Source: a virus. From it: DNA of 64,000 nt. Positions 9,106 through 40,612 of the stretch are shown here, in pieces; within the stretch, counting starts at the first letter, position 1, and each line of letters opens with the position of its first letter. The translations under genes were made by a program, and so were the position numbers. Where the stretch lies: positions 26,919-90,918 of IMG/VR virus record IMGVR_UViG_3300008266_000018. One strand, given 5' to 3'. The notes beneath the pieces are model-generated. The model did not search any database. It saw only the letters and a program-made list of their open reading frames with translations, and was not told the DNA's origin.

Positions 9106-10443
9106 TTAATTATCTTTCAAGTGTTTAGCTAGATTTCTGGCTTTTAATCCTCCATCATGCTCAGGCTTGTATTCTTCATTTATTTCTGCTCCTGAATACT
9201 TTTCTAGTTTTCCTTCTTTCTTTAAGTTAGAAAGCGGTGTTCCTTCGATTTCTGCTGTCCCACTTAATTGATGAGAATCAAATGGCAAACTATTTATATA
9301 ATTCAAAGTGTCTTGAACTTGCTCTTTTGTTTCTCCCGGCAATCCCATAGTAAATGTTCCATGAACAGTCATTCCTATTTCTTTTAGGTATTTAACAACT
9401 TCTGCCGCTTCTTTTAAATCTAGATGTTTATTAACTATATTATCTACAACGTATTGATTTCCACTTTCAAATCCGAGCTTAACGCCAAAGCATCCAGATT
9501 CTTTCATTACGCGCCAAGTATCTTTTTGAATGGTATCAGCGCGACACATAGCCGACCAAGGAAGACCAACTTCCTTCATCAACTCGCACATTTCAAGAGT
9601 ATGTTTATTTCCTAGATTAAATGTATCGTCATCAAAATAAATAGACTTATAATCATATCTACTCAATAGATTTTCGATATATCTGCCCATGTATTCTTTT
9701 GTATAATGGCGTACAGTTCTCTTAGATTTACCAAGAGGATCATTTCCTGTCATTACAGCAGGCCATACACAGAAGATGCACTTATATGGACATCCTCTGC
9801 TACTCCAAATATGTGCGTGAGGAAATACTTGCCCTCTTGGATTGCAATCATTATAACGCCACCATGTTTCATCGTTTAAATCAGGAAATGGAGCAGAGTT
9901 CATTTCCTCTAATGTCAAAAGATCATGCTGAATAATTCCTCTTTGACCATTTAAAACTTTGACGACATTTTTTTCGTATTCACCTTTAATTAATGCGATT
10001 ATACTTTCGTTCTTTAGAATCTCTTGCTCTTGATCTGCACTTGAAATCGTTCCAGTAAGAATTATTTTAAGATTTTTAAAATTCTTATTGATATAAGCTA
10101 TTACTTTCTTATCGTGATCCCAACTTGGAGTAGCTGTTTCAATAACTATATAGTCAGGCTTAAATTGATTTAAATAATTAAAATAGCTTTGATAAGATTC
10201 AGAAAGAGCGATTGAATCTCTCAAAACTACTTCGTATCCAGTTTTCTCTCTGCACCATGAAGCGGCATATCCCATAAAGAATGGATATGGAAGATATTCT
10301 CCAAATTGATATCTATCTGGGATGCATAAATATCTTTTACCTGTATGAGGCCAGCGGCTTCCAGCGCGGACTCCACGAACGAAATCATTAGAATTATCTG
10401 GATCGACATCCCACCAAGGAGGATTAGAAAATAAAACCTTCAT
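9106..10443 (-). CDS. B12-binding radical SAM protein
   Basis: SRGCPYKCIFC (CxxxCxxC), FDDDTF, GFESG, GLPGET; RAGSRWP N-terminus. Confidence 0.9.
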   Translation of the reverse strand: MKVLFSNPPWWDVDPDNSNDFVRGVRAGSRWPHTGKRYLCIPDRYQFGEYLPYPFFMGYAASWCREKTGYEVVLRDSIALSESYQSYFNYLNQFKPDYIVIETATPSWDHDKKVIAYINKNFKNLKIILTGTISSADQEQEILKNESIIALIKGEYEKNVVKVLNGQRGIIQHDLLTLEEMNSAPFPDLNDETWWRYNDCNPRGQVFPHAHIWSSRGCPYKCIFCVWPAVMTGNDPLGKSKRTVRHYTKEYMGRYIENLLSRYDYKSIYFDDDTFNLGNKHTLEMCELMKEVGLPWSAMCRADTIQKDTWRVMKESGCFGVKLGFESGNQYVVDNIVNKHLDLKEAAEVVKYLKEIGMTVHGTFTMGLPGETKEQVQDTLNYINSLPFDSHQLSGTAEIEGTPLSNLKKEGKLEKYSGAEINEEYKPEHDGGLKARNLAKHLKDN

Positions 10444-11072: not shown

Positions 11073-11695
11073 TTAGTGTTTTTTGATTTGTATAAAGCAA
11101 AATAATGAGTTTCGTCATTTAATATATTTATTTTGTCGTTAGAAAAAGAAATCGGCTCCCAACAATTAGTCGCCATTATTAAATGATACATATTTACTCC
11201 TCCTGTATTATTTTTAAAATTTCTAAAAAAATCATTATAGCTTCTTGTACGCGAAAAGTAATATTTTGTTCTATAAGATAAATAAGTTAAATAAAATATA
11301 ACTTCATCAGGAGGCATATGTTGAAAAACTGTTGTCTCATATAATAATGAATAATTATTGTCGAATTCAGAAACGTCATGAATTAATTTATCGTCTTTTG
11401 AAGCGGTCTTTTTATATCTTTCAATCATTTCGGGAAGGTCAAAACCGTGAACTTCATTGAAAATTGATTTTAAATATTGTTGATTTCTTCCTAGACCAAC
11501 TCCGAAATCTACAACTTTATTTAATTCTACATTTTCTTTTATGTAATTAAGATAAGGTTCTGGAATTCTTGTTGGCCTTGAATAGCTTTTACTATTTTCA
11601 TCCCAAGAACTATTTAAATCTCTAGCTAACATATCTTCTTGAGAAGAAGTTATGAAAGATTTCCAATAATCTTTTTGATATTTTAAATTATTCAT
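11069..11695 (-). CDS. Class I SAM-dependent methyltransferase
   Basis: VVDFGVGLGR motif I; TVFQH. Confidence 0.75.
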   Translation of the reverse strand: MNNLKYQKDYWKSFITSSQEDMLARDLNSSWDENSKSYSRPTRIPEPYLNYIKENVELNKVVDFGVGLGRNQQYLKSIFNEVHGFDLPEMIERYKKTASKDDKLIHDVSEFDNNYSLLYETTVFQHMPPDEVIFYLTYLSYRTKYYFSRTRSYNDFFRNFKNNTGGVNMYHLIMATNCWEPISFSNDKINILNDETHYFALYKSKNTK

Positions 11696-14225
11696 CTTTC
11701 TTTATTTCTGATAGTTTTGTATAAATTTTATTTGTTTGCACTGCTATTACGTCGGCAAACACGCATCCATCTTTCTTTTTGCCACGAATAACAACAATGT
11801 CGCCTTTCTTAGGAGTCTTTTTATTTATATCAAGAAAATCTTCAAGTTTCTTATTGAACATTTTCACGTTTATTATATTACTTTCATCAAAAATATCCAT
11901 CGTCATGTATTTATTACCAGCTTTAGATGTGCGCGTTTCAGAATCGTCAGAAAGTCTTCCGATAAATCGCACTTCATAGTTTTCTGGCAGTCCGTTAATA
12001 TCATCTATCAATTCCAAGATGACATCTGATTGATCCATGACGATATCCTTTAAATTAGAGCCATAAGTATAACCAAGTAGTTTATTCTCATAAAACCAAT
12101 TAGCGAACTTCTCGGACTTCTTGTTCTTATCGTAAATCTCCGCATATCTTTGAGACTTATTTTTGATAGTTTCAATTCTTGAAGGTTTGATTAAAAGCTT
12201 TCCTTTTTCATCTACTTTCTCACAAATATACTTCATTGTTTTGACAAGATCATAATCAAATCCCGCGCCATAATTAATGCAATATCTCTTTTCCTTCTCA
12301 GTAAGAGTATTCCAAAGTTGAGCTTCATAGACGACCTTGGTTCTAGTCTGCTTAAAGCCTTCCAATGCTCCAGCTTGAATTAAAGCGCACAATATGCCAA
12401 GATTCAATCCAGCTTCATTTGCAGTGTTAAAGATCTCAAACTTATTTTGAAATATGCCGATAAAGTTATTAAGCTTCTCAATAGATTTATCTGAAATGCC
12501 TTTGATAGAAAGAAGACCAAATCGAATATTGTCTCCTTGAATACTAAAGTCTTTTTGAGATTTAAGTAGATGAGGGGGCAGTAATTCAATATTAAAATGC
12601 CGCATCTCTTTGTGAATTTTAGAAATCTCAGAAATCGGATCAGGTTCATGTCGAGTCATCTTCAACAACGACAAGAAGAACTGCTGCGGATATTTAAATT
12701 TAAGATATACTGTAATTGCAGCTAGAGCGGCATAACAAGCTGAATGCGATTTGTTGAAAGAGTAGTTCGCAGAGTCTTCAAGAACTTTCCATAGAATATC
12801 GCCAGCTTCTTGAGGAAGCTTATTTTCAACTATCTTATCTTGAATCTTCTGCTTCCACTTCTTAACCTCTTCGACTTTCTTTTTACCTACAATGCGGCGA
12901 AGAATTTCTGCTTCGTCCAAAGAGAAACCAATCTTTGTAGACATTTTCATCAACTGCTCTTGATATAGAGCAACGCCGCCAGTCACCTTTAGAACGTCAT
13001 CAAAGAGAGAGTGAATGCTCTCGTATGTTTCTGTATTGGTATAAAGAGCGTACTTATCGACGAATTGAAGCGCACCGGGACGCGCAAGAGCCAGAACGCC
13101 GCTAAGTTCTTCCAGATTCTTAGGCTTTACCTTCTTTAATACTTTAAAGTTAGTATCAGCTTCAATTTGGAATAATCCATGAGGAGTTCTCAGGTCTTGA
13201 AGACTCTGATAAATACAAGAATCATTTACATCGATATCTAGCAGATTAATACCGATATTCTTGCATACGTCATCTACAACTGAAACGCCACGAAGACCTA
13301 GAATATCAAGTTTGATATTAAATAATGTAACCCAGTTCATGTCAAATGATGACACGATGCTTCCGTCAGAAGATCTTTCTGTTGGGCAAGATTCTAGGAT
13401 ATTATCATAACAAAGTAGAACTCCAGAAGGATGTGCGCCTTTATTTTTAATTAGATCTTTTAACTTCCTAGAAACAGAATATATTCTAGGATTTTCGTCG
13501 CACCAGTTCTTGAATTCCTCTACTTCGGCATAAGCTTCTTCGACATCTTTGACCTGACCAAAGACTTTAGGAATCAAACCTGAAACTACTGTCATTTCAG
13601 ATTCAGGCTTCTCGTCGATAACCTTGCCGCATTCTTTAATTAGAAGTTTACTGCTAAGAGTGTTTAGAGTTAAGATTTTGGCGGTTTTGTTTTCGAACTT
13701 CTTTTCGAGGTACTCCAAAACTCTATGCCGCTGATAGTAACATATATCAAGATCAACGTCACACATAAGAGAACCGTCGAGATAGGTGATACCATTGACA
13801 ACATTTTTCTTTGCGCGAAATCTTGAAATAAAACGTTCAAAAAATAGTCCATATTTAAGAGGATCGATTTGAGTTACTCCACATGCGAATAGAATTAAAC
13901 TTCCTGCGGCAGATCCACGACCTACGCCAGTGGGAATGCTATTATCTTTACAGAAGTTGATTACATCCCAAACCAGTAGTAGATAATCCGTAAAGCTGAG
14001 TTCCTCTACGATTTCTAGCTCATAATTTAATCTATTTATATATTCTTGAGAGAATAGATTTTTTTCTTTTAGTCCGTATTCGCATAAAGACTTTAAGAAT
14101 GAAAGATTGGAGCAATCAAGATCTGCGCCAATTTTGTTCTTAAACTTATCTTCAATTTTAAATGAAGGTAGTCTTACGCCATGTAGCTCAAGCTTTAAAT
14201 CAGAAAAATTATCGTAAAAATTCAT
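11688..14225 (-). CDS. dnaE: DNA polymerase III alpha (DnaE-type) polymerase core, lacking the PHP domain
   Basis: GRGSAAGS, FERF, DVDLD, HPSG, KLDILGL, YQEQ, YSFNKSH, C-terminal OB fold. Confidence 0.95.
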   Translation of the reverse strand: MNFYDNFSDLKLELHGVRLPSFKIEDKFKNKIGADLDCSNLSFLKSLCEYGLKEKNLFSQEYINRLNYELEIVEELSFTDYLLLVWDVINFCKDNSIPTGVGRGSAAGSLILFACGVTQIDPLKYGLFFERFISRFRAKKNVVNGITYLDGSLMCDVDLDICYYQRHRVLEYLEKKFENKTAKILTLNTLSSKLLIKECGKVIDEKPESEMTVVSGLIPKVFGQVKDVEEAYAEVEEFKNWCDENPRIYSVSRKLKDLIKNKGAHPSGVLLCYDNILESCPTERSSDGSIVSSFDMNWVTLFNIKLDILGLRGVSVVDDVCKNIGINLLDIDVNDSCIYQSLQDLRTPHGLFQIEADTNFKVLKKVKPKNLEELSGVLALARPGALQFVDKYALYTNTETYESIHSLFDDVLKVTGGVALYQEQLMKMSTKIGFSLDEAEILRRIVGKKKVEEVKKWKQKIQDKIVENKLPQEAGDILWKVLEDSANYSFNKSHSACYAALAAITVYLKFKYPQQFFLSLLKMTRHEPDPISEISKIHKEMRHFNIELLPPHLLKSQKDFSIQGDNIRFGLLSIKGISDKSIEKLNNFIGIFQNKFEIFNTANEAGLNLGILCALIQAGALEGFKQTRTKVVYEAQLWNTLTEKEKRYCINYGAGFDYDLVKTMKYICEKVDEKGKLLIKPSRIETIKNKSQRYAEIYDKNKKSEKFANWFYENKLLGYTYGSNLKDIVMDQSDVILELIDDINGLPENYEVRFIGRLSDDSETRTSKAGNKYMTMDIFDESNIINVKMFNKKLEDFLDINKKTPKKGDIVVIRGKKKDGCVFADVIAVQTNKIYTKLSEIKKDE

Positions 14226-23627: not shown

Positions 23628-24689
23628 TTACACTGACTTTTGGAAATTGTCAATATCAAACTTTACCATTTTTTCTACGAGCTTGTCAAAAGAAACCTTT
23701 GGCTTCCAACCTAATTCTCTTCTTGCGAGATCTGAATTTCCAAGTAGAATTTCTACTTCCGCTGGTCTATAGAATTTAGGGTTAATTTTAACTAAAACAG
23801 AAGACTGAGCTTCTCCAAGAGACAATAAATTAGTTTGAATACTTAATTCTTTATGTTCGCCTTCTCCATGCCAAGCGCAAGGAATATCAGCATAAACGAA
23901 AGCAAGATTTACAAATTCTTTGATTGTATGAGTTTCATTAGATGAAAGAACGTAATCTTTAGGAGTTTTTTGATTTAACATCTTCCATACGCCATCAACA
24001 AAGTCTTCTGAATCTGACCAGTCTCTTTTCGAATCTAAATTTCCTAATTCAATCGGAGCAAAAGGCTGATTATTTTTAATTGCGTTATGAATTCGCGCAA
24101 CGCCTAGAGAAATCTTTCTGGTTACAAACTCAGGGCCGCGCTTGGTTCCTTCGTGATTAAATAAAATGCCATGAACAGCATATAAATTATACGATTCACG
24201 ATATACTTTTACTAGTTGATGAGCAGCAACTTTAGATGCTCCATACGGACTTCTTGCCCTCATTGGGTGTTTCTCGTCTTGTGGAGAGTAAACAACGTCG
24301 CCAAATTCTTCGCTGCTTCCAGCAGAATAAAATCTGCACTTTGGATGATATTGACGAATCGCTTCAAGGCATCTAGCAACTCCAGTAGCGTTAATATCAA
24401 ATGTTTGAAGAGGAATATCCCAACTACAACCAACAAAACTTTGTGCGCCAAAATTAATAAAATAATCAGGCTTAATATCTTGAACTAAACTTGGAACACT
24501 TACACTGTCGCACAAATCTCCATAAACTAAATCTACTCTAGGATTATGAATAAAAGATTTACAGTTAACTAGATTCGGATTTGATGTCCTCCGAATCATG
24601 CCATAAATTTTAGCGTCAGTATTCTTTAGCAAATATTCCGCCATATTTGCGCCGTCTTGACCTAGTATTCCAGTTAATAAAATTTTCAT
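23628..24689 (-). CDS. gmd: GDP-mannose 4,6-dehydratase
   Basis: TGILGQDG, AQSFV, SSEEFG, SPYGASK, FNHE, FVTRKI, LGNLDSKRDW, RPAEV. Confidence 0.95.
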   Translation of the reverse strand: MKILLTGILGQDGANMAEYLLKNTDAKIYGMIRRTSNPNLVNCKSFIHNPRVDLVYGDLCDSVSVPSLVQDIKPDYFINFGAQSFVGCSWDIPLQTFDINATGVARCLEAIRQYHPKCRFYSAGSSEEFGDVVYSPQDEKHPMRARSPYGASKVAAHQLVKVYRESYNLYAVHGILFNHEGTKRGPEFVTRKISLGVARIHNAIKNNQPFAPIELGNLDSKRDWSDSEDFVDGVWKMLNQKTPKDYVLSSNETHTIKEFVNLAFVYADIPCAWHGEGEHKELSIQTNLLSLGEAQSSVLVKINPKFYRPAEVEILLGNSDLARRELGWKPKVSFDKLVEKMVKFDIDNFQKSV

Positions 24690-29404: not shown

Positions 29405-29457
29405 GTCAGATAGTCTCAAATAAAGCGTCTAAATATGAAATATAACCATGAAAAAGT

Positions 29458-29473
29458 TGGCATGAATCTTGCT
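29458..29473 (+). promoter_or_regulatory. Sigma54 (-24/-12) promoter
   Basis: TGGCAT-GAATC-TTGCT; exact TGGCAY-N5-TTGCW spacing. Confidence 0.75.
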
Positions 29474-29500
29474 ATAGAAATAAATAACAAGGAAAACAAT

Positions 29501-29812
29501 ATGGTATTAAATTATTATTACGACGCAACAAAAAACTACTACTTCAAACAAGATGGATCAGACTATGTAGTCTCCATTGATGTGCCGGGAATTAAAAAAT
29601 CAGAATTATCAATCACGATAAATAAAGAAGAACAAGATAATCTTCTGTCTATTAAAACGCAAAATAAAGACAGAGATTACAGTCAAAATTTTAGAGTGTC
29701 TGGCAAGTTTGATGAAAAATCAGTGAAGGCATCACTTTCTGAAGGAGTATTAAAAATAAAAATGAAGCTGAAAGAGGAAGCTTCAACGAAACATAAAATA
29801 GAAATTGAATAA
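29501..29812 (+). CDS. Small heat-shock protein (Hsp20)
   Basis: IDVPGIKKSEL, KASLSEGVLKI, KIEIE. Start at 29501 follows AAGGA and the sigma54 site. Confidence 0.88.
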   Translation: MVLNYYYDATKNYYFKQDGSDYVVSIDVPGIKKSELSITINKEEQDNLLSIKTQNKDRDYSQNFRVSGKFDEKSVKASLSEGVLKIKMKLKEEASTKHKIEIE

Positions 29813-29817
29813 AAAAT

Positions 29818-29843
29818 AACCCTCGCCAAACGGCGGGGGTTTT
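29818..29843 (+). terminator. Intrinsic terminator
   Basis: AACCCTCGCC-AAAC-GGCGGGGGTT followed by T's. Confidence 0.75.
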
Positions 29844-29857
29844 GTGTAATATTTTGT

Positions 29858-30073
29858 ATGCCTATTCCTAAACCGTCAAAGAAAAACCAAAACGAAGACA
29901 AGTATATTGGCGACTGTATGGGGGATTCAAGTATGTTAAAAGAATTCCCCAATCAGAAGCAAAGATATGCTGTATGCAAAACTACTTTTGATCGCGCCAA
30001 GAAAGCTAAAGCTTCAGAAGATGAAGATATAAATTGGGTTGACAATCAAGAAAAGGGTTATATATTGTATTGA
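29858..30073 (+). CDS. Small phage hypothetical protein
   Basis: MPIPKP..E..YI..CM...QRYAVC. Confidence 0.6.
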   Translation: MPIPKPSKKNQNEDKYIGDCMGDSSMLKEFPNQKQRYAVCKTTFDRAKKAKASEDEDINWVDNQEKGYILY

Positions 30074-30687
30074 TGCTGCTTACGAGCAAAGTCTTTACTC
30101 TGTGCCTTAATAAAAGCTGGATTCCCATCGGGACAAAGTGCGTTTCTGAAGCAGTATCTTGCCTGTATTCAGGAGATTATCAAGCGCTTTATATTCAAGA
30201 AAACGGTAACGAACCGATCTTCGAAGTTTTATCTTGGGAAGATTGGGTGAGAATTCCTGTCTCTGAAAATGACATAACTATCTCATCTGTAAAACTCACC
30301 ATCAAAGTTCCTACAATTATTATTTGTAAAAATTACAATGCAATTCCTATGCTTGAAGTTAAGCTGAACAGCGATAGGATTGCAGAGAGAGATAATTATA
30401 CTTGTCAATATTCTGGGCGCAAATTTACTCCAGAAGAAGTCAAAAAGAAAGCTTCAATTGATCACATTATTCCAAGATCAAGAGGAGGAAAAGATTCTTG
30501 GGATAATTTAGTTCTTTGCGATAAAGAAATTAATTCAATGAAGTCTAATAAGACTCCAGAAGAAGCGGGGCTTAAATTAATTAGAAAGCCTTCTTTAAAG
30601 CCGTACAAAGTTCCATATCAATCTTCTATTAGAAATATTAACCATTACTCATGGAAGCATTTTATAATAGAAAAGAATGAACAATAA
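30070..30687 (+). CDS. HNH endonuclease
   Basis: RDNYTCQY, IDHIIPRSRGG..WDNLVLC..N..K. Confidence 0.9.
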   Translation: MMLLTSKVFTLCLNKSWIPIGTKCVSEAVSCLYSGDYQALYIQENGNEPIFEVLSWEDWVRIPVSENDITISSVKLTIKVPTIIICKNYNAIPMLEVKLNSDRIAERDNYTCQYSGRKFTPEEVKKKASIDHIIPRSRGGKDSWDNLVLCDKEINSMKSNKTPEEAGLKLIRKPSLKPYKVPYQSSIRNINHYSWKHFIIEKNEQ

Positions 30688-30970
30688 ATCTCAAGAGAGA
30701 TCCCATAAGCAAATAATGAAGTGCGTCAAAGAGCTTTCAGAAAGTTACGACACAGTTCAGATTTTTTTAACAAGACACGTTGATGTAAGTAAAAATATTG
30801 AAGATACTGAATCTCTTTATTTTGGGATAGGAAATAAATTTGCAATTTACGGCCAAGTTAGAAATTGGTTGTTGACAGAAGAGAAAAAGATGCTAAACAT
30901 AGCTGACCTAGAATTCGACTCTGAATTTGGAGGAGAAGACGAGGACGACGGAACAGAAGAAAAAGAATAA
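30677..30970 (+). CDS. Hypothetical protein
   Basis: ORF with acidic tail. Confidence 0.55.
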   Translation: MNNKSQERSHKQIMKCVKELSESYDTVQIFLTRHVDVSKNIEDTESLYFGIGNKFAIYGQVRNWLLTEEKKMLNIADLEFDSEFGGEDEDDGTEEKE

Positions 30971-30971
30971 T

Positions 30972-31397
30972 ATGAACATTCAAATTAAGAAATTGTCTGA
31001 TAAAGCTAAGATTCCAACTCAAGGATCAAAGTATGCTGCTGGTTATGATTTGTATGCAGCAGAAGAAGTTCTTGTAAATACAATGGGAAGAAAGTTGGTA
31101 AAAACCAATATTTCTATTTCAATTCCTGAAGGATATTATGGGCGCATTGCTCCTCGTTCAGGTCTAGCTTATAAGAATGGAATCGATGTTTTGGCTGGAG
31201 TTATCGATTCTGATTATCGCGGCGATATTGGAGTTATTCTTTTTAATACAGATCATAATCTTGATTTTGAAGTTAATGTTGGCGACAGAATCGCGCAAAT
31301 TATTATTGAAAAGTGTCATTCTGCAAATTGGGAAACTGTTGAGACTCTTGATGCCACCGTTCGATCTGAAGGTGGATTTGGAAGCTCAGGAGTTTAA
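30972..31397 (+). CDS. dut: dUTPase (trimeric)
   Basis: AGYDL, PRSGLA, GVIDSDYRG, RIAQ, GGFGSSG. Confidence 0.95.
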   Translation: MNIQIKKLSDKAKIPTQGSKYAAGYDLYAAEEVLVNTMGRKLVKTNISISIPEGYYGRIAPRSGLAYKNGIDVLAGVIDSDYRGDIGVILFNTDHNLDFEVNVGDRIAQIIIEKCHSANWETVETLDATVRSEGGFGSSGV

Positions 31398-31400
31398 AAT

Positions 31401-31943
31401 ATGTCAAGGCATGCTAATCTTCCATTTCATCTTTACGTCAAAGTAAGCAATAAATATCTTGGCGCGGAAATGCCAGATGGTTATACAGAAGCTATTTGGC
31501 ACGGAGTTTTTGGAAGATTTAATCAGGTTTTATCCTGCCATGTCTTGTTAGAAAGTGGAGCGCATTGGAGCGGCTTGCCAATTCAAGCAATATCTACAAA
31601 AAATAATTATTCTCATTCTTCTAACATTTTAATGCCTTGGGCAACTATGGGAGAAGAAATAGACTGCATTCATTTTAAATACTTAGAAGGTATTGAGTGC
31701 GAAACTAGAGAAGTAATAAAAACTCCAGCTAGACATACAGGAATAATCATAGACTGGAAAGATGGTTTTAGTAGATATCCGCAAGAACACAAGCCGCTCA
31801 ATTTGATTGAATTAGAAAATGGTCAATTTGCTTTATACCCAAATAACTATCTTTATTTCAAAGACGCTCATTTTATTTCAGATGAAGCTAAAAGTAATTT
31901 AAAATTTTACAAGCGAAACGAAGAAATATACTGGGGAAATTAA
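31401..31943 (+). CDS. Phage hypothetical protein
   Basis: LESGA.W..LPI, EHK...L.NGQFALYPNN. Confidence 0.6.
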   Translation: MSRHANLPFHLYVKVSNKYLGAEMPDGYTEAIWHGVFGRFNQVLSCHVLLESGAHWSGLPIQAISTKNNYSHSSNILMPWATMGEEIDCIHFKYLEGIECETREVIKTPARHTGIIIDWKDGFSRYPQEHKPLNLIELENGQFALYPNNYLYFKDAHFISDEAKSNLKFYKRNEEIYWGN

Positions 31944-31944
31944 A

Positions 31945-32328
31945 ATGCTTAGAATAAAAACAAAATTAGATAAAAGCCAAATCGCTGGAATTGGAGTTTT
32001 CACTGACGAAGATATTCATGAAGGACAAATTATATGGAGTATGAATAATCTTTCTGTCTTTAGAATAACTTCCGAAGATTATAAATCTCTTTCCGAAGAA
32101 GAAAAAAATTTTATAGAAGAAAAAGATTACTATTGGATCGACAGCGATGGAAGCTATATGATTCCATTAGATGACAGCAGATTTATAAATCATTCTGAAA
32201 GTCCAAATGTTATAGATAAAAATGATTATTTAACTATTGCAGCTAGAAATATTAAAAAAGGCGAAGAGTTAACTATGAATTATAGGACATTAGTTAGTGA
32301 AGAATATTGGAAACCTTATTTTAAATGA
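31945..32328 (+). CDS. SET-domain protein
   Basis: GIGVF, RFINHSESPN, IKKGEELTMNY. Confidence 0.9.
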   Translation: MLRIKTKLDKSQIAGIGVFTDEDIHEGQIIWSMNNLSVFRITSEDYKSLSEEEKNFIEEKDYYWIDSDGSYMIPLDDSRFINHSESPNVIDKNDYLTIAARNIKKGEELTMNYRTLVSEEYWKPYFK

Positions 32329-32825
32329 GACTTAATAAAATTGAATATGGTTTTTATCTTGCTCTTGCGTCTAGGGCAAGATCTGAAGATCGTCAAACTC
32401 AGACAGGATGCGTACTTTTTGATGAAAACTGGCGCACAATTGGCACTGGTTTCAACGGATTCGCGCCAAAATTCGTTCCAACCGAAGATGTTTTTGAAGA
32501 TCGCTCTTTCAAATCTGAAATTATTTGTCACGCAGAAATTAATGCTATTCTTAATAGCTCAAAAAACGCTAAGTATTTATTTTCAGTATTAAGTCCATGC
32601 GTATCTTGCGCCAAAACAATTGCCGCCACATCAATCAAAGAAGTTTATTTTATTAAACAATATCATAAAGCTGGCGCAGAAGCTGACATGAAGTACGCCA
32701 AAATCTTTGATTTATATGGAATAAAAGTTTTTCAAATTTCTAAAGATAGTCTTTCAAATATAGAAAAAGTAATGAAACAAGAAGTAGAAAATATTAAAAA
32801 TTTATCTTTGGATCTTGAGTATTAA
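32325..32825 (+). CDS. dCMP deaminase
   Basis: RSED..TQTG, GFNG, HAEINA, SPCVSC. Confidence 0.9.
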   Translation: MRLNKIEYGFYLALASRARSEDRQTQTGCVLFDENWRTIGTGFNGFAPKFVPTEDVFEDRSFKSEIICHAEINAILNSSKNAKYLFSVLSPCVSCAKTIAATSIKEVYFIKQYHKAGAEADMKYAKIFDLYGIKVFQISKDSLSNIEKVMKQEVENIKNLSLDLEY

Positions 32826-33678: not shown

Positions 33679-33813
33679 ATGTCAGCAGGTAAAGGCGATA
33701 AACCCAGAAATTGTTTTAGTAGTAAATATAAAAATAATTACGACGACATAAATTGGGGTGATAAAAATAAGACTTTAAAAAAGAAGAAAAATTCTAATAA
33801 TAAAGTCAAATGA
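33679..33813 (+). CDS. Small phage peptide (not in ORF track)
   Basis: MSAGKGDKPRNCFSSKYKNNYDDINW..., 44 aa; fills the gap. Confidence 0.6.
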   Translation: MSAGKGDKPRNCFSSKYKNNYDDINWGDKNKTLKKKKNSNNKVK

Positions 33814-35168
33814 AGAATCTTTCAATTATTTTTATCTCACTTCTTGTAGCTTTTACAGCTATAAGCATTAAAGCCAAAAGTCAATCTAAAGCTCAAACTA
33901 AGTTTCCAGACTTCGGCTTTATGGTTCCGCCCAGCGAAGTCACAAATGTTAATGAAGTTTTTAAACTAAGTCAGGATTACCCGAAGAGCCTTCCAAAGAA
34001 CAAGCTTCCTAAATTTTACAGCATAGATTATAAAACTAATTGGCGCGAATATCTACTTTCTGTACGAGATTACTGTTTTGAAGGAAATACAAATGTAGAT
34101 TTTCGAGTTGAGAATAATAAGGCTCGAAATTGGTATCACATGCCTTTCCAACATTATTCTGCAAATGGCCGAGAAGGGTTTCACGGATTAACCAAGGAAG
34201 CGCCAGTTAAGGCGCATCAACTCGCTATTTCGCAAGAATACGCCACATCTGGCGCGTGGGCAGTAGGCTTCTTTAATGACGTAGCTGGATATACAATTGG
34301 TCAAGTTTGGGCTGATCATGAAAACCCAGATGTCACCCTTATGAAGGGAGGATTTAAACATGGTGCAGTATTGTTTAAGCTATTGTTTACTTCTATTCCA
34401 AAAGACGTAGCTGAAGCCACAGTTCCATTTTTCCGCAACGGAATTTGGTGGGACGCTTATGCAACATATAATTTTAATAGTTCAGACCGTTCAAAAATTC
34501 AAGTTGTATTAACCCAAATGGACATTATGGTTCGTGATGATAATGCTCCTAACGGTTGGGTATTTGGCAATTTCCAATATAATGGCGCAGTAAATAATCC
34601 TATTAAGTGGAATAATCTAGTTCCAGTAGGTTTGATGTGGGGCCAAGATCCTACAAATAATGTAGATTTCTCTAATCCATATCCAACAAACACGATTATT
34701 AATACAGCTTTGAAGGAAACTATTATTAATCCTGATAGAAACGAGCTTCCTCCTACGCATCTTGGCTGGAATGGTCGTTTAAATGGCCCTCTTGATAACT
34801 CTATGAGTTCTTGTTATAGCTGCCATTCAACGGCTGAATATCCTCAAGGATCTCCTATCAGTCCATTGTTTGATCCAGTTCTTTCTAAGAAATATCCCCC
34901 CGGCAGCGATGGTTGGATGCTTTGGTTTAGAAATCTAAAGTGCGCTCAGTCTTTTGATAAGTCAACTTACGCTAAACCTCATTATTCAACTGACTTCTGT
35001 TTACAAATGTCAGAAGCTCTTGAGAATTTCGTAAATTGGAAAGCTGCACAAGGCGGTCTTTATCGCAAGGATTATGATAAATCTTCAAATAATTTCCTTG
35101 AACTTCGAAATGGAGAGATTAACCTTAGAGAAGGTAAGATCTACCCTGTAGATCGTCGAAATAAATGA
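33810..35168 (+). CDS. Secreted protein with a CxxCH haem-c motif
   Basis: Signal peptide; SSCYSCHSTA. Confidence 0.65.
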   Translation: MKNLSIIFISLLVAFTAISIKAKSQSKAQTKFPDFGFMVPPSEVTNVNEVFKLSQDYPKSLPKNKLPKFYSIDYKTNWREYLLSVRDYCFEGNTNVDFRVENNKARNWYHMPFQHYSANGREGFHGLTKEAPVKAHQLAISQEYATSGAWAVGFFNDVAGYTIGQVWADHENPDVTLMKGGFKHGAVLFKLLFTSIPKDVAEATVPFFRNGIWWDAYATYNFNSSDRSKIQVVLTQMDIMVRDDNAPNGWVFGNFQYNGAVNNPIKWNNLVPVGLMWGQDPTNNVDFSNPYPTNTIINTALKETIINPDRNELPPTHLGWNGRLNGPLDNSMSSCYSCHSTAEYPQGSPISPLFDPVLSKKYPPGSDGWMLWFRNLKCAQSFDKSTYAKPHYSTDFCLQMSEALENFVNWKAAQGGLYRKDYDKSSNNFLELRNGEINLREGKIYPVDRRNK

Positions 35169-35707
35169 AAGACAAAGACGGATATCTCCTAGTCGAAAAA
35201 GAGTTTACTCTTCGCGGTTATAAATTTAAATTCATCAAGCAATTAAAAAATGATTGGTGCATTTATGAGAAAATCAAAAAAGAAGAAGCAGGAGTAAAAA
35301 GCAGAACCAAGCACATTCATAAAAAGTATGAGCTTGTAAAATTACGGCGGCAAGAATCTTATGTATTTAATGATAAGAAGATTGAAGCTAAATGGCTGTA
35401 TCCAAGCGATAACGCTTTTGGAAAACTTGGTTTTGACTGCATTTCTTTAGATGCGGCGCAAAATCGATACGAAGAAATCGTTAAAGCTGGAGAGAAAAAA
35501 GAAATAGAAGAAGAGCTTAAGAATGAAGAAGTAAGAATTCCTACAAAGGATTTTACTATCAAAGACTTTATTAAAGCTAATCCAAAGCTAAATTATTCAA
35601 TAGCTTATCAAAAGATTAAGGAATTAATCTCAAATAAGGGCATTAGACTCGCAGGAGAAAAGAAAAATAAACGAGGTAAAGCTAGTAATCTTTATAAAAA
35701 GGTGTAA
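35165..35707 (+). CDS. Hypothetical protein with possible C-terminal winged helix
   Basis: FTIKDF...RGKASNLY. Confidence 0.5.
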   Translation: MKDKDGYLLVEKEFTLRGYKFKFIKQLKNDWCIYEKIKKEEAGVKSRTKHIHKKYELVKLRRQESYVFNDKKIEAKWLYPSDNAFGKLGFDCISLDAAQNRYEEIVKAGEKKEIEEELKNEEVRIPTKDFTIKDFIKANPKLNYSIAYQKIKELISNKGIRLAGEKKNKRGKASNLYKKV

Positions 35708-35716
35708 TAAAAGACT

Positions 35717-35965
35717 ATGGAAGAATACATAGGAGATATTAAATTATTCGCAGGAACTTATTGTCCACAATACTTTATGTACTGCGATGGTCAAACATTA
35801 CAAATTCAATACAATCAAGCGTTATTTGCTGTTATTGGATTTCAATATGGAGGAGACAATAAAACATTATTTGCTCTTCCTAATTTAAATAAAAACCCGA
35901 TTATACAAGGCACAAGTTTGAAATATATAATTTGTACAGAGGGAATTTTCCCAACTAGACCATAA
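35717..35965 (+). CDS. Tail-collar domain protein
   Basis: IGDIKLFAG..P..FMYCDGQ.L...NQALFAVIG..YGGD...FALPNL...YIIC..GIFP.R. Confidence 0.85.
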   Translation: MEEYIGDIKLFAGTYCPQYFMYCDGQTLQIQYNQALFAVIGFQYGGDNKTLFALPNLNKNPIIQGTSLKYIICTEGIFPTRP

Positions 35966-35975
35966 TAAAAACAAC

Positions 35976-36000
35976 AAGCCGCCGAAAGGCGGCTTTTTTT
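35976..36000 (+). terminator. Intrinsic terminator
   Basis: AAGCCGCC-GAAA-GGCGGCTT plus T-run. Confidence 0.9.
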
Positions 36001-36014
36001 GTGTAAATAAAGAT

Positions 36015-36974
36015 ATGAATTTTAAAAAAATTTTTGCCGTATTTTGTTTATTTTTATTTACAGGATGCTTTTCTACAATAAAGCCAGCAAAACAAATTGA
36101 CGACAATCAAAAAATTATTGCCAAAGAAGAGAAGAAGGTAGACAACACTCTTGTAGAAATAGAAAAAAACGACAAAGGTAAGAAAATACAAACCTCTGGT
36201 CTTTCTATTGGTATTCAGCATTCTTTAAATCAAGTTACTAATGCTCCTGTACAAGTAGACACGGCGTTAAAATTGAATGAAAGAGTTATTTCTATTGTAG
36301 GTTCACCTCATATAGATGAAACAAAAAGAATTAAAGCTACAGTAGATTTATTAAATTCTGCTTTAGTTGAAGAGCGTAAGAAAGGCGAAGAACTTCTCGC
36401 TCAACGTGACGATTTAATTAATAAACTTCAAAAAGAAAAATCAGAGCTTAATCAAAAATATGATGACCAACTCTGGCAATTAACCGACAAAGCTAAAGAA
36501 GTCGCCAAAGAAGCTGACCAAAACAAAGCTGTATTAGATTCAATGAGCGGAATGTTCGGATTAAACGCCGTGTTTTGGGGCTTAAAGAAGTTTGTTGTTA
36601 GTGCATTAACTACAATAGTAGTATTTGTTATAGTATTTGTTCTTCTTCGTTTATTGGCTACGGTTCATCCCGCTGCCGCCGCCGCATTCTCAATATTTAA
36701 CATGTTGGGATCTGCAATAATATCTATTCTTAAAGCTCTTACTCCCAAAGCTTTTGAAATGTGTGATTTCGCAACAAAAGAAAAAGTTGATGAATTTAAA
36801 TCTCCTCTTGTTAAAATTATAGATGTTATTCAAGAACTAAAAGAAAAACAAAAAGAATCTCCTGATAGAGTATATCCATTAAATGAATTACTAAAACGTT
36901 TCGAGAAAGAAATGGATAGTGATGAAAAAGATTTAATAGATGATATATTAAGAGAACAAAAGTGGATCAAATAA
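36015..36974 (+). CDS. Lipoprotein with coiled coil and internal TM helices (spanin-like?)
   Basis: Lipobox LFTGC; helical region; hydrophobic segments at about aa 180-240. Confidence 0.6.
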   Translation: MNFKKIFAVFCLFLFTGCFSTIKPAKQIDDNQKIIAKEEKKVDNTLVEIEKNDKGKKIQTSGLSIGIQHSLNQVTNAPVQVDTALKLNERVISIVGSPHIDETKRIKATVDLLNSALVEERKKGEELLAQRDDLINKLQKEKSELNQKYDDQLWQLTDKAKEVAKEADQNKAVLDSMSGMFGLNAVFWGLKKFVVSALTTIVVFVIVFVLLRLLATVHPAAAAAFSIFNMLGSAIISILKALTPKAFEMCDFATKEKVDEFKSPLVKIIDVIQELKEKQKESPDRVYPLNELLKRFEKEMDSDEKDLIDDILREQKWIK

Positions 36975-37058
36975 CCGACAATATACCATAAAACACCGGA
37001 TAACTTAAAAAATCTATTTTATTTATTTTAGTGTAATCAGTTATACGCAACTGATTAT

Positions 37059-37439
37059 ATGAACACAAACGACGTTAATATTATATCGCAACAAGCATTA
37101 GAATCAACTGGTCAAGATTTGACTGGTAAATATGTTTGGTTATTTATTATTGGACTTATAGCGTTAATGTTTAAGTCTAGTATTGAAAAGTTTGCGGCAG
37201 CTTTGTTTATGTTTGTTGGAAATGATTATAAAGAAGACGATGTTGTTTATGTAGATGGTAAACCCGGAAGAATAGTAAGAGTAGGTCTTACAAAGACTGT
37301 TTTCTTTATATACGATGTGGTTGACGGAAAAGTTTTGGGCGGCAGCAAGTTAGTTGTCCAAAACGAAAGACTAGCCTCATTAAATATTGAAAAGCCTCTT
37401 GCCAACTTAGATCTTAGCAGATTTAAGAAACAAGATTAA
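37059..37439 (+). CDS. Mini MscS-like membrane protein
   Basis: TM segments, then YKEDDVVYVDGKPGRIVRVGLTKT (MscS beta domain), VVQNERL. Confidence 0.65.
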   Translation: MNTNDVNIISQQALESTGQDLTGKYVWLFIIGLIALMFKSSIEKFAAALFMFVGNDYKEDDVVYVDGKPGRIVRVGLTKTVFFIYDVVDGKVLGGSKLVVQNERLASLNIEKPLANLDLSRFKKQD

Positions 37440-37440
37440 A

Positions 37441-39192
37441 ATGGCAATTAATATTTTCACTCACATACGACGCAATTTATATGATAATGTCTATAACTGC
37501 ATAGTTAAAGACAAAGTAAATATAAATGAAAGAGATGAGGACACTGGAAATCCTCCTCTCATAGTTGCTGTATCGGAGAATAATAAAGAGATTGTTGAAT
37601 TATTATTGAATCACGGCGCGGATGTTAATTGTAAAGATTGGACAAGTAAAAATACAGCACTTGATATAGCAGAGCAAAAAGGTTTTTTATCTATTGTCGA
37701 TGTTCTTCAAAAGCGTGGTGCAAAATATGGCAGCGGAAGTAGCTTTCATTTGGCGGCTAAAAATGGCGACATAGTTTCAGTAGAAGAAATGCTGAATAAA
37801 GGCCATACTTTAAATGAAGTTGACGCTGCAAAAGGTTGGACCGCAATGCATTATGCAGTTCATTATGGACAAAAACATTTAGTTGAATATTTAATACTTA
37901 GAGGCGCTGATGTTAATTCTAAAGACTTCTTAGGTAAAAATAATCCAATAGATGTATTAGCTTTAGGCAATAGAGGAGAAATCGTAAGAATATTAACCAA
38001 ATCTGGCGCAAAATCTTCTGGTGGTTCAAGCATTCATTTTTGTGCAGAAACTGGTGATTTTGAAGGTGTACAGAAATATTTTGACATTGATGGTCGTATA
38101 AACGGTAGAGACGAAAAGAATGGATGGATGCCTATCCATTATGCCGTTAACGCTAACGATATTGAGATGGTTGAATTCTTAATCTGTTTAGGAGCCAACG
38201 TTAATGGCGCGGATTTTAAAGGTGAAGTTGCGCCATTAGATTTAGCTTTTAAAACTGGTAATATTAAAATGCAAACACTGCTTCAATCAAAAGGGGCAGC
38301 TAGAAAGAAAAAAATAGATAATGGAGGCGGCGGCAAAGACGTTACAATCCATATCAGTGAAGAATTTAAAAAACAAATGCAAGCTTATATTGATAAAAGA
38401 AATCAAGAAGAAGCTGTTTTAAAAAAGATACATGAAGAAGAAGTCTCAAAAGATCCAAAGAAAAAAGATAAAAAGACTATTAACTGGAAAGAATTTTTAA
38501 AAAGTAAAAATAAGCCTGTCGAAGAAAAGAAGGTCGAAGAAGTTAAGAAAATTGAAGCTCCAAAACCTCCTAAGAAAATAATAAATCAAGTTGCGGTGAT
38601 TGATGCTGAAGTTAAATCTAGTCGTCTTGAATTGGATAAAATACAAGATGGCTATATTTTTTTCATGGACATAGTTGGATATAGTAAAAAAACTACTGAC
38701 GAGCAAAGAAAATGTTTTAAAGATCTAGGCGAAATAGTTAAATCAACTATACAATTTAAAACAGCTAATGCTCTTGAAAAATTAATCGTTCTTCCAACAG
38801 GTGACGGAATGATTCTTGGATTCTTCACTTACCTTGAAGACGCTATCAATTGTGGCATCACTGTTGCAAAAGTAGTTAAAAATAGACCAGATTTAGAAAT
38901 GAGAATGGGCATTCATTGCGGCGACGTTTGCCCACTAGAAGATATAAATGGTAATTTAAATATTAGCGGCGATGGAATTAATTACGCTCAAAGAGTAATG
39001 GATGCTGGAGAAACTAATCATTTATTAGTTAGCTCTGACGTTATGGCTAAATATGACAGACCAAATTATGTATTAGTTGAAGATCTTGGCGATGTAATAG
39101 TCAAGCACGGAGTTATTATGCGATTGTATAGTTTGTATTCATCTGATTTTGGAAATAAAAATTTTCCGAATTCAAGAGTAAAAAAAGTGTAA
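37441..39192 (+). CDS. Ankyrin-repeat protein with C-terminal class III nucleotide cyclase
   Basis: Repeated G..(P/A)(L/M/I)H.A...GADVN; FMDIVGYS, TGDG, RMGIHCG, GDGINYAQRVM. Confidence 0.9.
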   Translation: MAINIFTHIRRNLYDNVYNCIVKDKVNINERDEDTGNPPLIVAVSENNKEIVELLLNHGADVNCKDWTSKNTALDIAEQKGFLSIVDVLQKRGAKYGSGSSFHLAAKNGDIVSVEEMLNKGHTLNEVDAAKGWTAMHYAVHYGQKHLVEYLILRGADVNSKDFLGKNNPIDVLALGNRGEIVRILTKSGAKSSGGSSIHFCAETGDFEGVQKYFDIDGRINGRDEKNGWMPIHYAVNANDIEMVEFLICLGANVNGADFKGEVAPLDLAFKTGNIKMQTLLQSKGAARKKKIDNGGGGKDVTIHISEEFKKQMQAYIDKRNQEEAVLKKIHEEEVSKDPKKKDKKTINWKEFLKSKNKPVEEKKVEEVKKIEAPKPPKKIINQVAVIDAEVKSSRLELDKIQDGYIFFMDIVGYSKKTTDEQRKCFKDLGEIVKSTIQFKTANALEKLIVLPTGDGMILGFFTYLEDAINCGITVAKVVKNRPDLEMRMGIHCGDVCPLEDINGNLNISGDGINYAQRVMDAGETNHLLVSSDVMAKYDRPNYVLVEDLGDVIVKHGVIMRLYSLYSSDFGNKNFPNSRVKKV

Positions 39193-39208
39193 GTTAAAAG
39201 TATCTTTT

Positions 39209-39826
39209 ATGACAAACGTCGTTACAGAAATTTCAAATACGCTTAATTCTATAGGGAATTTTTTCACTATGGCAAACGCGACAATTGCAGCATTAATTAT
39301 TTTTACCGGATACTTAATAAGTTTCAGCAAGAAAATTAAACCATATATTTCAGTAAAAGATGATATTGCTTCATTAAAAGTAGACCTCGCTAAAATATCA
39401 AGTGAATTTAAAACAAATGGCGGCAAAAGCTTAAAAGATCAAATAAACGATTTACAAACATCTACAAAAACCATTCTTTATAGACAAAGATGGATACTTG
39501 ATAACAGAGAAGAGCCGATATTTGAAACAGATGAACATGGAAATTTTACATGGGTAAACGATGCATTTGCAAGATTAACAGATAGACCGTTCAGAGATTT
39601 ACAAAATAATAACTGGATTAATTGTTTAAAAGAAGACACAAGGGAAGAAATCACTGTTAGTTGGAATGTAGCGATGGAAAATAAAAGAACTTTCGAGCAT
39701 ATATTATTTGTAGTTGATAGTAAAAATAGAGTTTTTTCTACAAAATGCATTGCTTCTCGTCAAGAAGATGGAAAATATATAGGAAGTTTTACGAACGTAG
39801 AGAAAATCGTTGAAAAAAAATCTTGA
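39209..39826 (+). CDS. Single-TM protein with PAS domain
   Basis: TM at about aa 20-38, NGGKSLKD, PIFETDEHGNFTWVNDAFARLT...W. Confidence 0.75.
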   Translation: MTNVVTEISNTLNSIGNFFTMANATIAALIIFTGYLISFSKKIKPYISVKDDIASLKVDLAKISSEFKTNGGKSLKDQINDLQTSTKTILYRQRWILDNREEPIFETDEHGNFTWVNDAFARLTDRPFRDLQNNNWINCLKEDTREEITVSWNVAMENKRTFEHILFVVDSKNRVFSTKCIASRQEDGKYIGSFTNVEKIVEKKS

Positions 39827-39850
39827 CTTCGTGAAAAATACATGTAATAT
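39823..39850 (+). promoter_or_regulatory. Sigma70-type promoter
   Basis: TTGACT-16-TAATAT. Confidence 0.55.
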
Positions 39851-39858
39851 GTAAGTGT

Positions 39859-40563
39859 ATGATTAAGTATATTAATATTATTATCGCAACCCTTATGGCT
39901 TCAGTCGCAGTTTTCGCTGCGGATACTGAATCACCTGTTAACGCCAGCATTAACGCTGGTTATAACAACCATTATATTGTGAATGGTTTGGCAAAAACTG
40001 GCGGACAAGGTTTCGCTGGTTTCAATATTGGATCGACATATTTTGGTGTCGATGGTTATGTCGGCGGCGTTATTCTTCCAGACGCTAATAACATTGATGA
40101 ATCCCACTGGAATGTTGGTGTAGGCAAGGCTTTGAAGGTTACCGAGAAGTTCTCGCTTCGCGGAGATTTGCAAGTTCTTCGTCATCAAAGTTCAATCGTA
40201 GGAGGCCGCAATTCAATCGAAATAGCTCCAAAGATTGCTTTGGTAAATCCATATCTAACTCCATATATTCGCGGTTCTCATGATTTCAATCTAAAGCAAT
40301 CAGGATATATTGTTGGCGTTGAACGTCCTACCGACGTATTTGGTTGGGTTACTGTCACCCCATCAGTTGAGTATGGCAAGTTCACTGATTATGATGTTGT
40401 GGCTGCTAAGATTGGCGTGTCACGCACCTTCTTCAATCATCTAACTCCTTATGCTGAAGTTGGCTGGTACGACAACAACTTCTCAGCTTCAAAGTACAAG
40501 TTCGCTTCTCAAGAGTTTAGCGGCGATATCGTCGCTACTGCTGGAGTTCGTTGGAACTTCTAA
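39859..40563 (+). CDS. Outer-membrane beta-barrel protein
   Basis: Signal peptide, amphipathic beta strands, BAM-type C-terminus AGVRWNF. Confidence 0.8.
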   Translation: MIKYINIIIATLMASVAVFAADTESPVNASINAGYNNHYIVNGLAKTGGQGFAGFNIGSTYFGVDGYVGGVILPDANNIDESHWNVGVGKALKVTEKFSLRGDLQVLRHQSSIVGGRNSIEIAPKIALVNPYLTPYIRGSHDFNLKQSGYIVGVERPTDVFGWVTVTPSVEYGKFTDYDVVAAKIGVSRTFFNHLTPYAEVGWYDNNFSASKYKFASQEFSGDIVATAGVRWNF

Positions 40564-40582
40564 AAAATAAATAAAACAAGTC

Positions 40583-40612
40583 AACCGTCATCCGAAAGGG
40601 TGGCGGTTTTTT
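40583..40612 (+). terminator. Intrinsic terminator
   Basis: AACCGTCATCC-GAAA-GGGTGGCGGTT plus T-run. Confidence 0.85.

Follow-up and report, generated by a model that had tools for sequence, protein, structure and literature searches.

The region at positions 36001-40612 of a 64,000-nucleotide viral sequence (IMG/VR record IMGVR_UViG_3300008266_000018, positions 26,919 to 90,918 of that record; hereafter the window) carries five genes on the plus strand, which we call A to E. Gene A (36015-36974, 319 aa) encodes a predicted envelope-spanning lipoprotein, gene B (37059-37439, 126 aa) a small MscS-like membrane protein, gene C (37441-39192, 583 aa) an ankyrin-repeat class III nucleotide cyclase, gene D (39209-39826, 205 aa) a membrane-anchored PAS protein and gene E (39859-40563, 234 aa) a probable outer-membrane beta-barrel. 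An earlier interpretation made without database searches, the sequence-only reading, had taken these five co-oriented genes, enclosed by two strong terminators, as one phage circuit for envelope sensing and second-messenger signalling. The layout and the phage origin were borne out, and so was the general theme: the region is rich in envelope proteins, and cyclic-nucleotide genes recur at this spot in related phages. Our results indicate, in place of a single five-gene circuit, a mosaic of accessory envelope and signalling genes at a variable site in the genome of a large, uncultured tailed phage.

Two intrinsic-terminator-like hairpins on the plus strand delimit the five genes. The first (35976-35995; eight pairs, six of them GC, a GAAA loop and a T-run) is bidirectional in form and closes the upstream unit, and the second (40583-40608; 11 pairs, six of them GC, and a T-run) lies 3' of E. 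They are the two best terminator sites of the region, in which 10 sites were found against 4.2 +/- 1.9 in shuffled sequences. Only 1 nt separates the stop codon of B from the ATG of C, as had been pointed out before. The ratio of non-synonymous to synonymous divergence (dN/dS) is 0.03-0.14 for all five genes, measured against relatives with a synonymous divergence (dS) of 0.5-2.4, which indicates that the five open reading frames (ORFs) are real genes under strong purifying selection. The values are 0.08-0.11 for A, and 0.03-0.06 for B and C despite a dS of 0.5-2.3.

The product of C is made up of about eight ankyrin repeats (residues 1-290; Pfam E = 7e-36), a Lys/Glu-rich and poorly conserved linker (291-395) and a class III cyclase homology domain (396-583; DNA 38626-39192). 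It has no hydrophobic segment and is a cytoplasmic protein. Its match to Guanylate_cyc (PF00211) lies just above the cut-off (23.1 bits against 21.9) and covers the C-terminal half of the profile only; relatives score 24-25 bits. A sequence search of the PDB returned 3mr7 (E = 5e-5) and Rv1900c (E = 6e-4), and Foldseek, run with a model of low confidence (pLDDT 47), gave 99 matches at E <= 1e-3, of which all those listed were class III cyclases, the best being Ma1120 (2e-7; TM 0.51-0.60). The metal-binding Asp residues (FMDIVGYS and PTGDGM) align to those of Rv1900c, 3mr7 and the canonical cyclase of related phages. The Arg of the R-x-G-x-H-x-G motif (RMGIHCG) is also retained, and the transition-state Asn and Arg are present (GDGINYAQR; G-x-x-x-N-x-A-x-R). 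FMDIVGYS, PTGDGM, RMGIHCG and GINYAQR are invariant across 28 distinct relatives of C. Judged by these residues, C looks catalytically intact, with the fold of a class III cyclase, and the identity first given to it is upheld. The soluble bacterial domains of Rv1900c/LipJ (1ybt), Ma1120 (4wp9) and Ruegeria pomeroyi 3mr7, which are its best sequence and structure matches, share with C the fold, the two metal-binding Asp and the transition-state Asn and Arg; C differs from them in its N-terminal ankyrin array, where they have a hydrolase or sensor domain, in its base-recognition residues and in being encoded by a phage.

At the positions that specify the base, C has Leu where Lys is expected and Asn where Asp is expected. 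This pair falls outside the purine-specifying combinations, which we took as Lys with Asp or Thr for ATP, and Glu with Cys and the like for GTP. The specificity pair of Rv1900c is also non-canonical. The closest cellular relatives of the C domain are the bacterial Ser/Thr-kinase fusion P0116 and its kin, in which both tandem cyclase domains (42-43% identical to that of C) carry the same Leu/Asn pair, so that the pair is a trait of a subfamily and not a sign of decay. These proteins also have LPTGDGM and GINxAQRVMD in common with C; they differ from it in that they are cellular signalling proteins with two tandem domains behind a kinase and no ankyrin repeats. Given Leu/Asn instead of a purine pair, the product of C is not predictable from its sequence, and a pocket unlike that of adenylyl or guanylyl cyclases may yield an unexpected one. 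The family is plentiful in metagenomic data: the best 115 matches in a search with the cyclase domain were all ankyrin-cyclase proteins, each standing for a 90%-identity cluster, and were 76-98% identical to the domain of the window. The Leu/Asn subfamily is common in metagenome-assembled genomes (MAGs) of Acidobacteriota and Verrucomicrobiota (L202-L235; L-numbers denote related loci and G-numbers related genomes, G001 being L298-L306), where tandem domains stand behind Ser/Thr kinases, and it is apparently uncharacterised. One related locus (the region L064:10001-11562) has the ankyrin-cyclase in two pieces, 122 aa of ankyrin sequence and the other 429 aa, possibly through a frameshift, a sequencing error or decay of the copy.

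Gene B encodes a predicted single-pass protein of the inner membrane, with one hydrophobic segment followed by Lys-rich residues, and by the positive-inside rule the rest of the protein should be cytoplasmic. The sequence-only reading had called it a truncated MscS. Against the Pfam profile of MscS (PF00924), B scores below threshold (15.3 bits against a cut-off of 20.2, E = 0.022) and its relatives reach 13.9-15.3 bits (E = 0.0035-0.017); the assignment finds support in two structure comparisons. An AlphaFold2 model (pLDDT 64) has a long helix, a short amphipathic helix and a five-strand beta-domain, with the protein ending about 25 residues beyond the latter. Foldseek places AtMSL10 and EcMscS on top (E = 4e-3), and VIA-align, run all against representatives, has Flycatcher1, Helicobacter pylori MscS and YbiO as its first three matches (Z of 7.3, 5.5 and 5.3). 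A profile search of the PDB and a PHROGs search gave no match for B, and the nearest ESM Atlas clusters are viral and unnamed. From three weak lines that agree (Pfam, Foldseek and VIA-align), B would consist of a pore helix like TM3 of MscS and an MscS-type beta-domain. It has neither the TM1-TM2 tension-sensing paddles nor the C-terminal alpha/beta domain, and is thus MscS-like but not an MscS. Within the MscS family of channels, which includes the minimal Trypanosoma cruzi MscS (9bgq), the model superposes best on TM3 and the beta-domain of Flycatcher1, Helicobacter pylori MscS, YbiO, YnaI and AtMSL10; it differs from these channels in lacking the paddles, the C-terminal alpha/beta domain and the barrel, and in its sub-threshold Pfam score. 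The family of B counts 1194 proteins and, to our knowledge, with 126 aa B is smaller than any described MscS relative.

The gene order around C was compared in 73 loci whose ankyrin-cyclase is 73-96% identical to C. A, B and C are contiguous in 56 of the 62 loci with enough upstream sequence, and the flanks differ widely: the genes upstream of A belong to at least nine different families, and the gene 3' of C, in 66 loci, is one for a 70-aa protein (57), one for an outer-membrane-protein-like (OMP-like) product (6), the PAS gene D (2) or another gene (1). E occurs in eight of the related loci. When loci were instead centred on B, 74 of 77 had A on the upstream side, and in 62 of 71 the next gene downstream was C. 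The 70-aa protein (L067:11776-11988 and 56 other loci) has no family match; it is kept beside C more often than D or E are, and is a candidate partner or receptor. In the window D stands at its position.

A was found without B and without any cyclase within 6 kb in 50 loci of more distant A homologues. These were retrieved with a narrower alignment; the broad alignment had no conserved stretch, and two single distant proteins used as queries found nothing. Some of the distant loci have a gp23-type capsid gene or a Mom gene in their vicinity. At L099, where B and C are absent, a D-like gene for a transmembrane PAS protein directly follows A, and the same order is seen in L101-L103 and L121, so that an older A-D arrangement seems to have received B-C, and also E, by insertion. 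The B-C pair is an addition specific to one lineage, situated 3' of A. In four A-only records of 99-304 kb neither a PF00211 match nor B was found, with a positive control run alongside. Where this could be checked, B-bearing phages have at least one class III cyclase, and A-only phages have neither B nor a cyclase.

D and E are swappable cargo of this locus. The product of D combines a single membrane helix at its N-terminus with a short coiled coil and a PAS domain (PAS_4, 34.2 bits against a cut-off of 23.1; PAS, 27.5 against 22.6) and carries no output domain, which agrees with its earlier description as a membrane-anchored PAS protein; a PDB search gave no match. The product of E has a hydrophobic N-terminus, a signal peptide and an invariant terminal Phe, and is probably an outer-membrane beta-barrel. 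The signal peptide and the Phe favour the barrel named in the sequence-only reading, and the match to OMP_b-brl (PF13505 clan), at 17.2 bits, stays under the cut-off of 28.7 (two of 18 relatives match, best E = 2.6e-4), so that a barrel is suggested only. No match to E was found in the PDB or PHROGs, and its family comprises 42 proteins only, none of them named. E has its own sigma-70-like promoter at 39823-39850 and its own terminator, the classic layout of a moron. The view that the five genes form one wired envelope-sensing circuit draws on their common orientation between two terminators and on their shared envelope and signalling theme. The distribution of the genes goes against it: D follows C in 2 of 66 loci, E is present in eight, most relatives have neither, and A stands without B or C in distant phages, while E has a promoter-like site of its own. 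Unlinking in relatives, which the sequence-only reading had itself named as refuting, is seen for D and E and, in distant phages, for A. We regard such a circuit as highly improbable and as largely refuted by the gene order.

Other cyclic-nucleotide genes occupy the same spot in related phages. Downstream of B in L131, L161, L162 and L169 come an OMP-like gene, a membrane cyclase of 479-483 aa (PF00211, E = 8e-29 to 6e-30) with the canonical Lys/Thr pair of adenylyl cyclases, and an HD protein. This alternative or additional cassette was seen in L025, L030, L035-L039, L131, L161, L162 and L169 (for instance L039:3221-4669, L025:5041-5814 and L037:3086-3733) and encodes a secreted OMP-like protein (~215 aa), a two-transmembrane sensor adenylyl cyclase (~480 aa) and an HD-domain protein (~257 aa), possibly a phosphodiesterase, for which a PDB search gave no match. 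Both cyclases are present in the complete genome G002. A homology between E and the OMP-like gene of this cassette was considered and rejected, as none was detectable. The window itself has no membrane cyclase, HD protein, OMP-like gene, 70-aa protein or Mom gene. A different insertion is found in L006 and L066, where genes for a 205-aa protein with two transmembrane (TM) segments and a 107-aa protein with three (L066:9056-9673 and 9677-10000) were inserted, the latter with a near-threshold match to YLATT (PF20303, E = 3e-5). YLATT is a domain described from conflict systems.

Since B and a cyclase travel together, usually adjacent and at times with a different cyclase, we regard the two as the functional core of the locus. 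That C makes a cyclic nucleotide acting on host targets, with B probably as its membrane partner and with A, D and E as separate envelope cargo, is a reading for which we judge the chances to be evenly balanced. During infection, C would dimerise and make a cyclic nucleotide in the host cytoplasm, and the ankyrin repeats would dock it to a protein partner. B is the foremost candidate for docking C, since its beta-domain of MscS type would be expected on the cytoplasmic side; docking would tie the activity or the location of the cyclase to the inner membrane, with B as a likely membrane anchor or regulator. No domain binding cyclic nucleoside monophosphates (cNMPs; PF00027) was found in five related phage records (two with a completeness rating of 100%), so that the signal would most simply be read by host proteins. 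The outcome may be a reprogramming of the host, or interference with cNMP-based host responses. A would act separately, as a tether between outer and inner membrane or as a spanin-like protein.

Several observations weigh against this reading. The Pfam cyclase match of C is marginal and its structural model poor (pLDDT 47). B is tied more tightly to A than to C. In the comparison of gene order across related phages, which the sequence-only reading had named as a check, B and C are usually adjacent (62 of 71), though on three related contigs (G002; L056/L198; L069/L197) they lie ~13-15 kb apart, and in L006 and L066 two genes stand between them. All B-bearing genomes belong to one phage lineage, so the co-occurrence of B and a cyclase could reflect shared descent and not function. 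Moreover, a non-canonical phage receptor is possible, given that the 70-aa protein follows C in 57 of 66 loci. The separations of B from C, the inserts and the single lineage would also suit a pure juxtaposition, in which C is a free-standing enzyme of host manipulation and B is a membrane gene placed upstream of it by chance, as unrelated as A, D and E, and so would the character of the locus as a recombination hot spot with many different neighbours. We consider juxtaposition unlikely, in view of the persistence of B-C adjacency in 62 of 71 loci despite saturated synonymous divergence, the spacing of 1 nt, the frequent presence of another cyclase where C is not beside B, and the absence of both B and cyclases from A-only genomes.

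A cyclase beside a small membrane protein brings to mind Pycsar, in which PycC works with a cNMP-binding membrane or TIR effector, and the sequence-only reading had evoked an effector of that type. In a phage-borne exclusion system of this kind, the ankyrin repeats would sense a competing phage, C would make a (pyrimidine) cNMP, and B, as the membrane effector, would cause the collapse of the cell or prevent superinfection. The class III-type cyclase next to a small membrane protein and the non-purine specificity residues of C are points of likeness; the ankyrin repeats match the PADLOC candidate defence protein PDC-M72A (E = 5e-28), a similarity of repeats only, and the YLATT-like three-TM gene is inserted at the locus in L006 and L066. 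The cassette differs from Pycsar in being phage-encoded and not part of a defence island. No cNMP-binding effector came to light: B has no cNMP-binding domain and no PADLOC match, and PF00027 is absent from the five phage records. The PADLOC match of C to PycC is insignificant (E = 0.029, 11.5 bits, over 20 residues), and there was none to PycTM. Furthermore, the Leu/Asn subfamily occurs in bacterial Ser/Thr-kinase signalling proteins and not in defence islands, and B goes with A more than with C. A Pycsar-like function is thus, in our estimate, very unlikely.

Gene A belongs to an independent and widespread family of phage envelope proteins, with 243 clusters at 50% identity that are nearly all of 300-330 aa. 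It was described as a lipoprotein with transmembrane helices, and this held. The lipobox L-x-[TLS]-[GS]-C, in the window LFTGC, is kept in 19 of 19 distinct relatives, and its Cys is invariant over 28 sequences, down to 25% identity, with no Asp at +2. Two strong hydrophobic segments (residues 193-211 and 221-242) follow a body of ~155 aa that is helical, charged and coiled-coil-like and contains an invariant Gly-rich amphipathic segment, and the charged C-terminal tail of 75 aa is conserved. The protein would have two, possibly three, membrane segments, and the tail would be periplasmic with two helices and cytoplasmic with three. A is predicted to span the envelope with a spanin-like topology: like T1 gp11 it combines an outer-membrane lipoprotein signal with inner-membrane anchoring, and like Rz of the Rz/Rz1 pair it has a periplasmic coiled coil. 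It differs from spanins in its size of 319 aa, in its two or three membrane segments, in its conserved C-terminal domain and in standing outside a lysis cassette. A itself has no match in PHROGs and no significant sequence match to any spanin family, its distant homologues matched PHROGs at E > 1e-3 only (one of them with a weak Rz-like spanin match, E = 0.0014), and in the ESM Atlas it falls in unnamed viral clusters only.

The hexamer GTGTAA, which the sequence-only reading had seen before three of the genes, lies indeed 5' of A, B and D. On the plus strand, the box of A (36001-36006, 8 nt 5' of the ATG), probably a start-proximal promoter-like signal of this phage clade, is kept in closer relatives despite their differing flanks; those of B (37031) and D (39187) lie 22 and 16 nt before the ATG, the latter overlapping the stop codon of C. 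The window has 19 copies in total, equal to the number expected by chance, and it is the position that is non-random: among hexamers within 35 nt 5' of ORF starts in the window, GTGTAA shows the strongest enrichment (6 against 0.37 expected, P = 3e-6), and in the complete relative G001, where it again ranks first, it stands upstream of 20 starts (of 54 copies) against 1.17 expected (P = 3e-18). Start-proximal copies (for example at 35702, 36001, 37031, 39187 and 61364 on the plus strand and 23628-23633 on the minus strand) often read (A/T)GTGTAAT. Genes preceded by it include those of ribonucleotide reductase (RNR) and rIIB in the window and, among others, a virion structural gene and a tape-measure-like gene in G001. 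Often the hexamer makes up the 5' arm of a hairpin whose other end is at the ATG. In the start hairpin of B (37031-37061, plus strand; -11.7 kcal/mol) the 5' arm holds the hexamer and the 3' arm reaches the AUG; the stem is identical in L001, L002 and L005, a different hairpin with GTGTAA takes the same place in L006, and none is found in the 74-82% clade. We take GTGTAA for a probable promoter element of the phage, one that gives very short leaders.

These features of A and of the start sites bear on the lysis timing that the sequence-only reading had put forward. In a lysis cassette, A would be a coiled-coil unimolecular spanin, B (and D where present) a holin- or antiholin-like protein, and the cyclase would tune the timing. 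The outer-membrane lipid anchor, periplasmic coiled coil and inner-membrane segments of A fit such a role, as do the Rz-like match of its distant homologue and the small, single-pass form of B with its charged tail. Start-covering hairpins at A or B in some relatives resemble those of T4 late genes, and GTGTAA before the virion structural and tape-measure-like genes of a complete relative is compatible with late expression; the hexamer, however, also stands 5' of RNR and rIIB. L083 is the only locus with a lysozyme-domain gene near A: its product has 640 aa, and A comes two genes after it. Elsewhere PF00959 is absent from the two complete relatives and is far from A in G006. Among the ORFs scanned from 29.4 to 44.0 kb of the window there was no endolysin or holin, the neighbours being Hsp20, HNH, dUTPase, SET, deaminase, tRNAs and transferases. 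The two or three membrane segments and the conserved 75-aa tail of A are unlike known u-spanins, which have a single membrane helix at the extreme C-terminus and a small beta-rich periplasmic body where A has a helical one. A lysis cassette is distinctly improbable on this evidence, and with no lysis genes near the locus the proposed link was not sustained.

The phage origin of the window is evident from rIIA/rIIB, a DnaB-like helicase, RNR and a DnaE-type polymerase, and related IMG/VR contigs of up to 174-296 kb, rated complete, encode a virion structural protein and a tape-measure-like gene. The replicative polymerase (11688-14225, minus strand) is DnaE-like, of the Pol III alpha type, and its best cultured matches are actinophage genes at ~26% identity. 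The label 'T4-like' was rejected for the window's own clade because of this DnaE-like polymerase; a gp23-type capsid gene is present in some of the phages with distant A homologues. In a collection of cultured phages the region gave no DNA match, protein A was unmatched and protein C was matched through its ankyrin repeats only; the lineage of the window is without a close cultured relative. Shine-Dalgarno motifs are scarce (11 of the 71 genes of the window), and the MAG labels of family members conflict, naming Ca. Fonsibacter, Verrucomicrobiota and Gammaproteobacteria.

The genes upstream of the locus are diverse. At 29435-32825 the window encodes Hsp20, an HNH endonuclease, a dUTPase, a SET-domain protein (PF00856, E = 2e-15) and a dCMP deaminase; the genes of tRNA-Gly and tRNA-Gln come next. 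The SET domain is uncommon in phages. At 33810-35168 lies the gene of a 452-aa secreted protein with a CxxCH haem-c motif and a weak match to cytochrome P460 (E = 5e-4, below the cut-off); it is an unusual phage cargo, shared with L066 only among the loci compared. Just 5' of the first terminator, an 82-aa ORF (35717-35965) with a GTGTAA box of its own comprises little beyond a Phage Tail Collar domain (PF07484, E = 1e-19).

Cyclic-nucleotide signalling is a main subject of present research on the conflict between phage and host, with Pycsar, CBASS and the phage nucleases or sponges that act on such signals. In the phages described here the phage itself carries the cyclase, sometimes two of them plus an HD hydrolase. 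A precedent exists in pelagiphages, which have a class III adenylate cyclase within a cluster of envelope-associated accessory genes, with curli (T8SS) clusters that include a histidine kinase and FecR (PMC9599517). Both are class III cyclases of aquatic phages amid envelope accessory genes; the partners differ, and the pelagiphage system as described has no ankyrin fusion or MscS-like gene. A link to CsgG and curli was rejected for the present phages, as PF03783 was not found in the five related records. The statement in the sequence-only reading that no equivalent had been described was thus too strong as regards phage cyclases near envelope genes; our literature search found no paper on a phage ankyrin-cyclase fusion or a phage mini-MscS. 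What is new here is a phage class III cyclase with an unusual ankyrin fusion, an unusual base-recognition pocket and an unusual neighbour.

All parts of the locus are small and can be expressed in Escherichia coli, which makes the product, the partner and the phenotype directly testable. For the MscS family, B would show what a TM3 helix and a beta-domain can do alone. A more ambitious idea, which we hold to be a long shot, is that A, B and C form a trans-envelope transducer built by the phage, in which A would link the outer to the inner membrane, a ring of the paddle-less B would report the state of the envelope or membrane, the ankyrin array of C would dock on that ring, and C would make a non-canonical cyclic nucleotide, for which its Leu/Asn pocket might have room, to control a choice made by the phage, for instance lysis inhibition or the exclusion of superinfecting phages. 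If true, the virus would encode a second-messenger pathway of its own, fed by an input module of a new kind.

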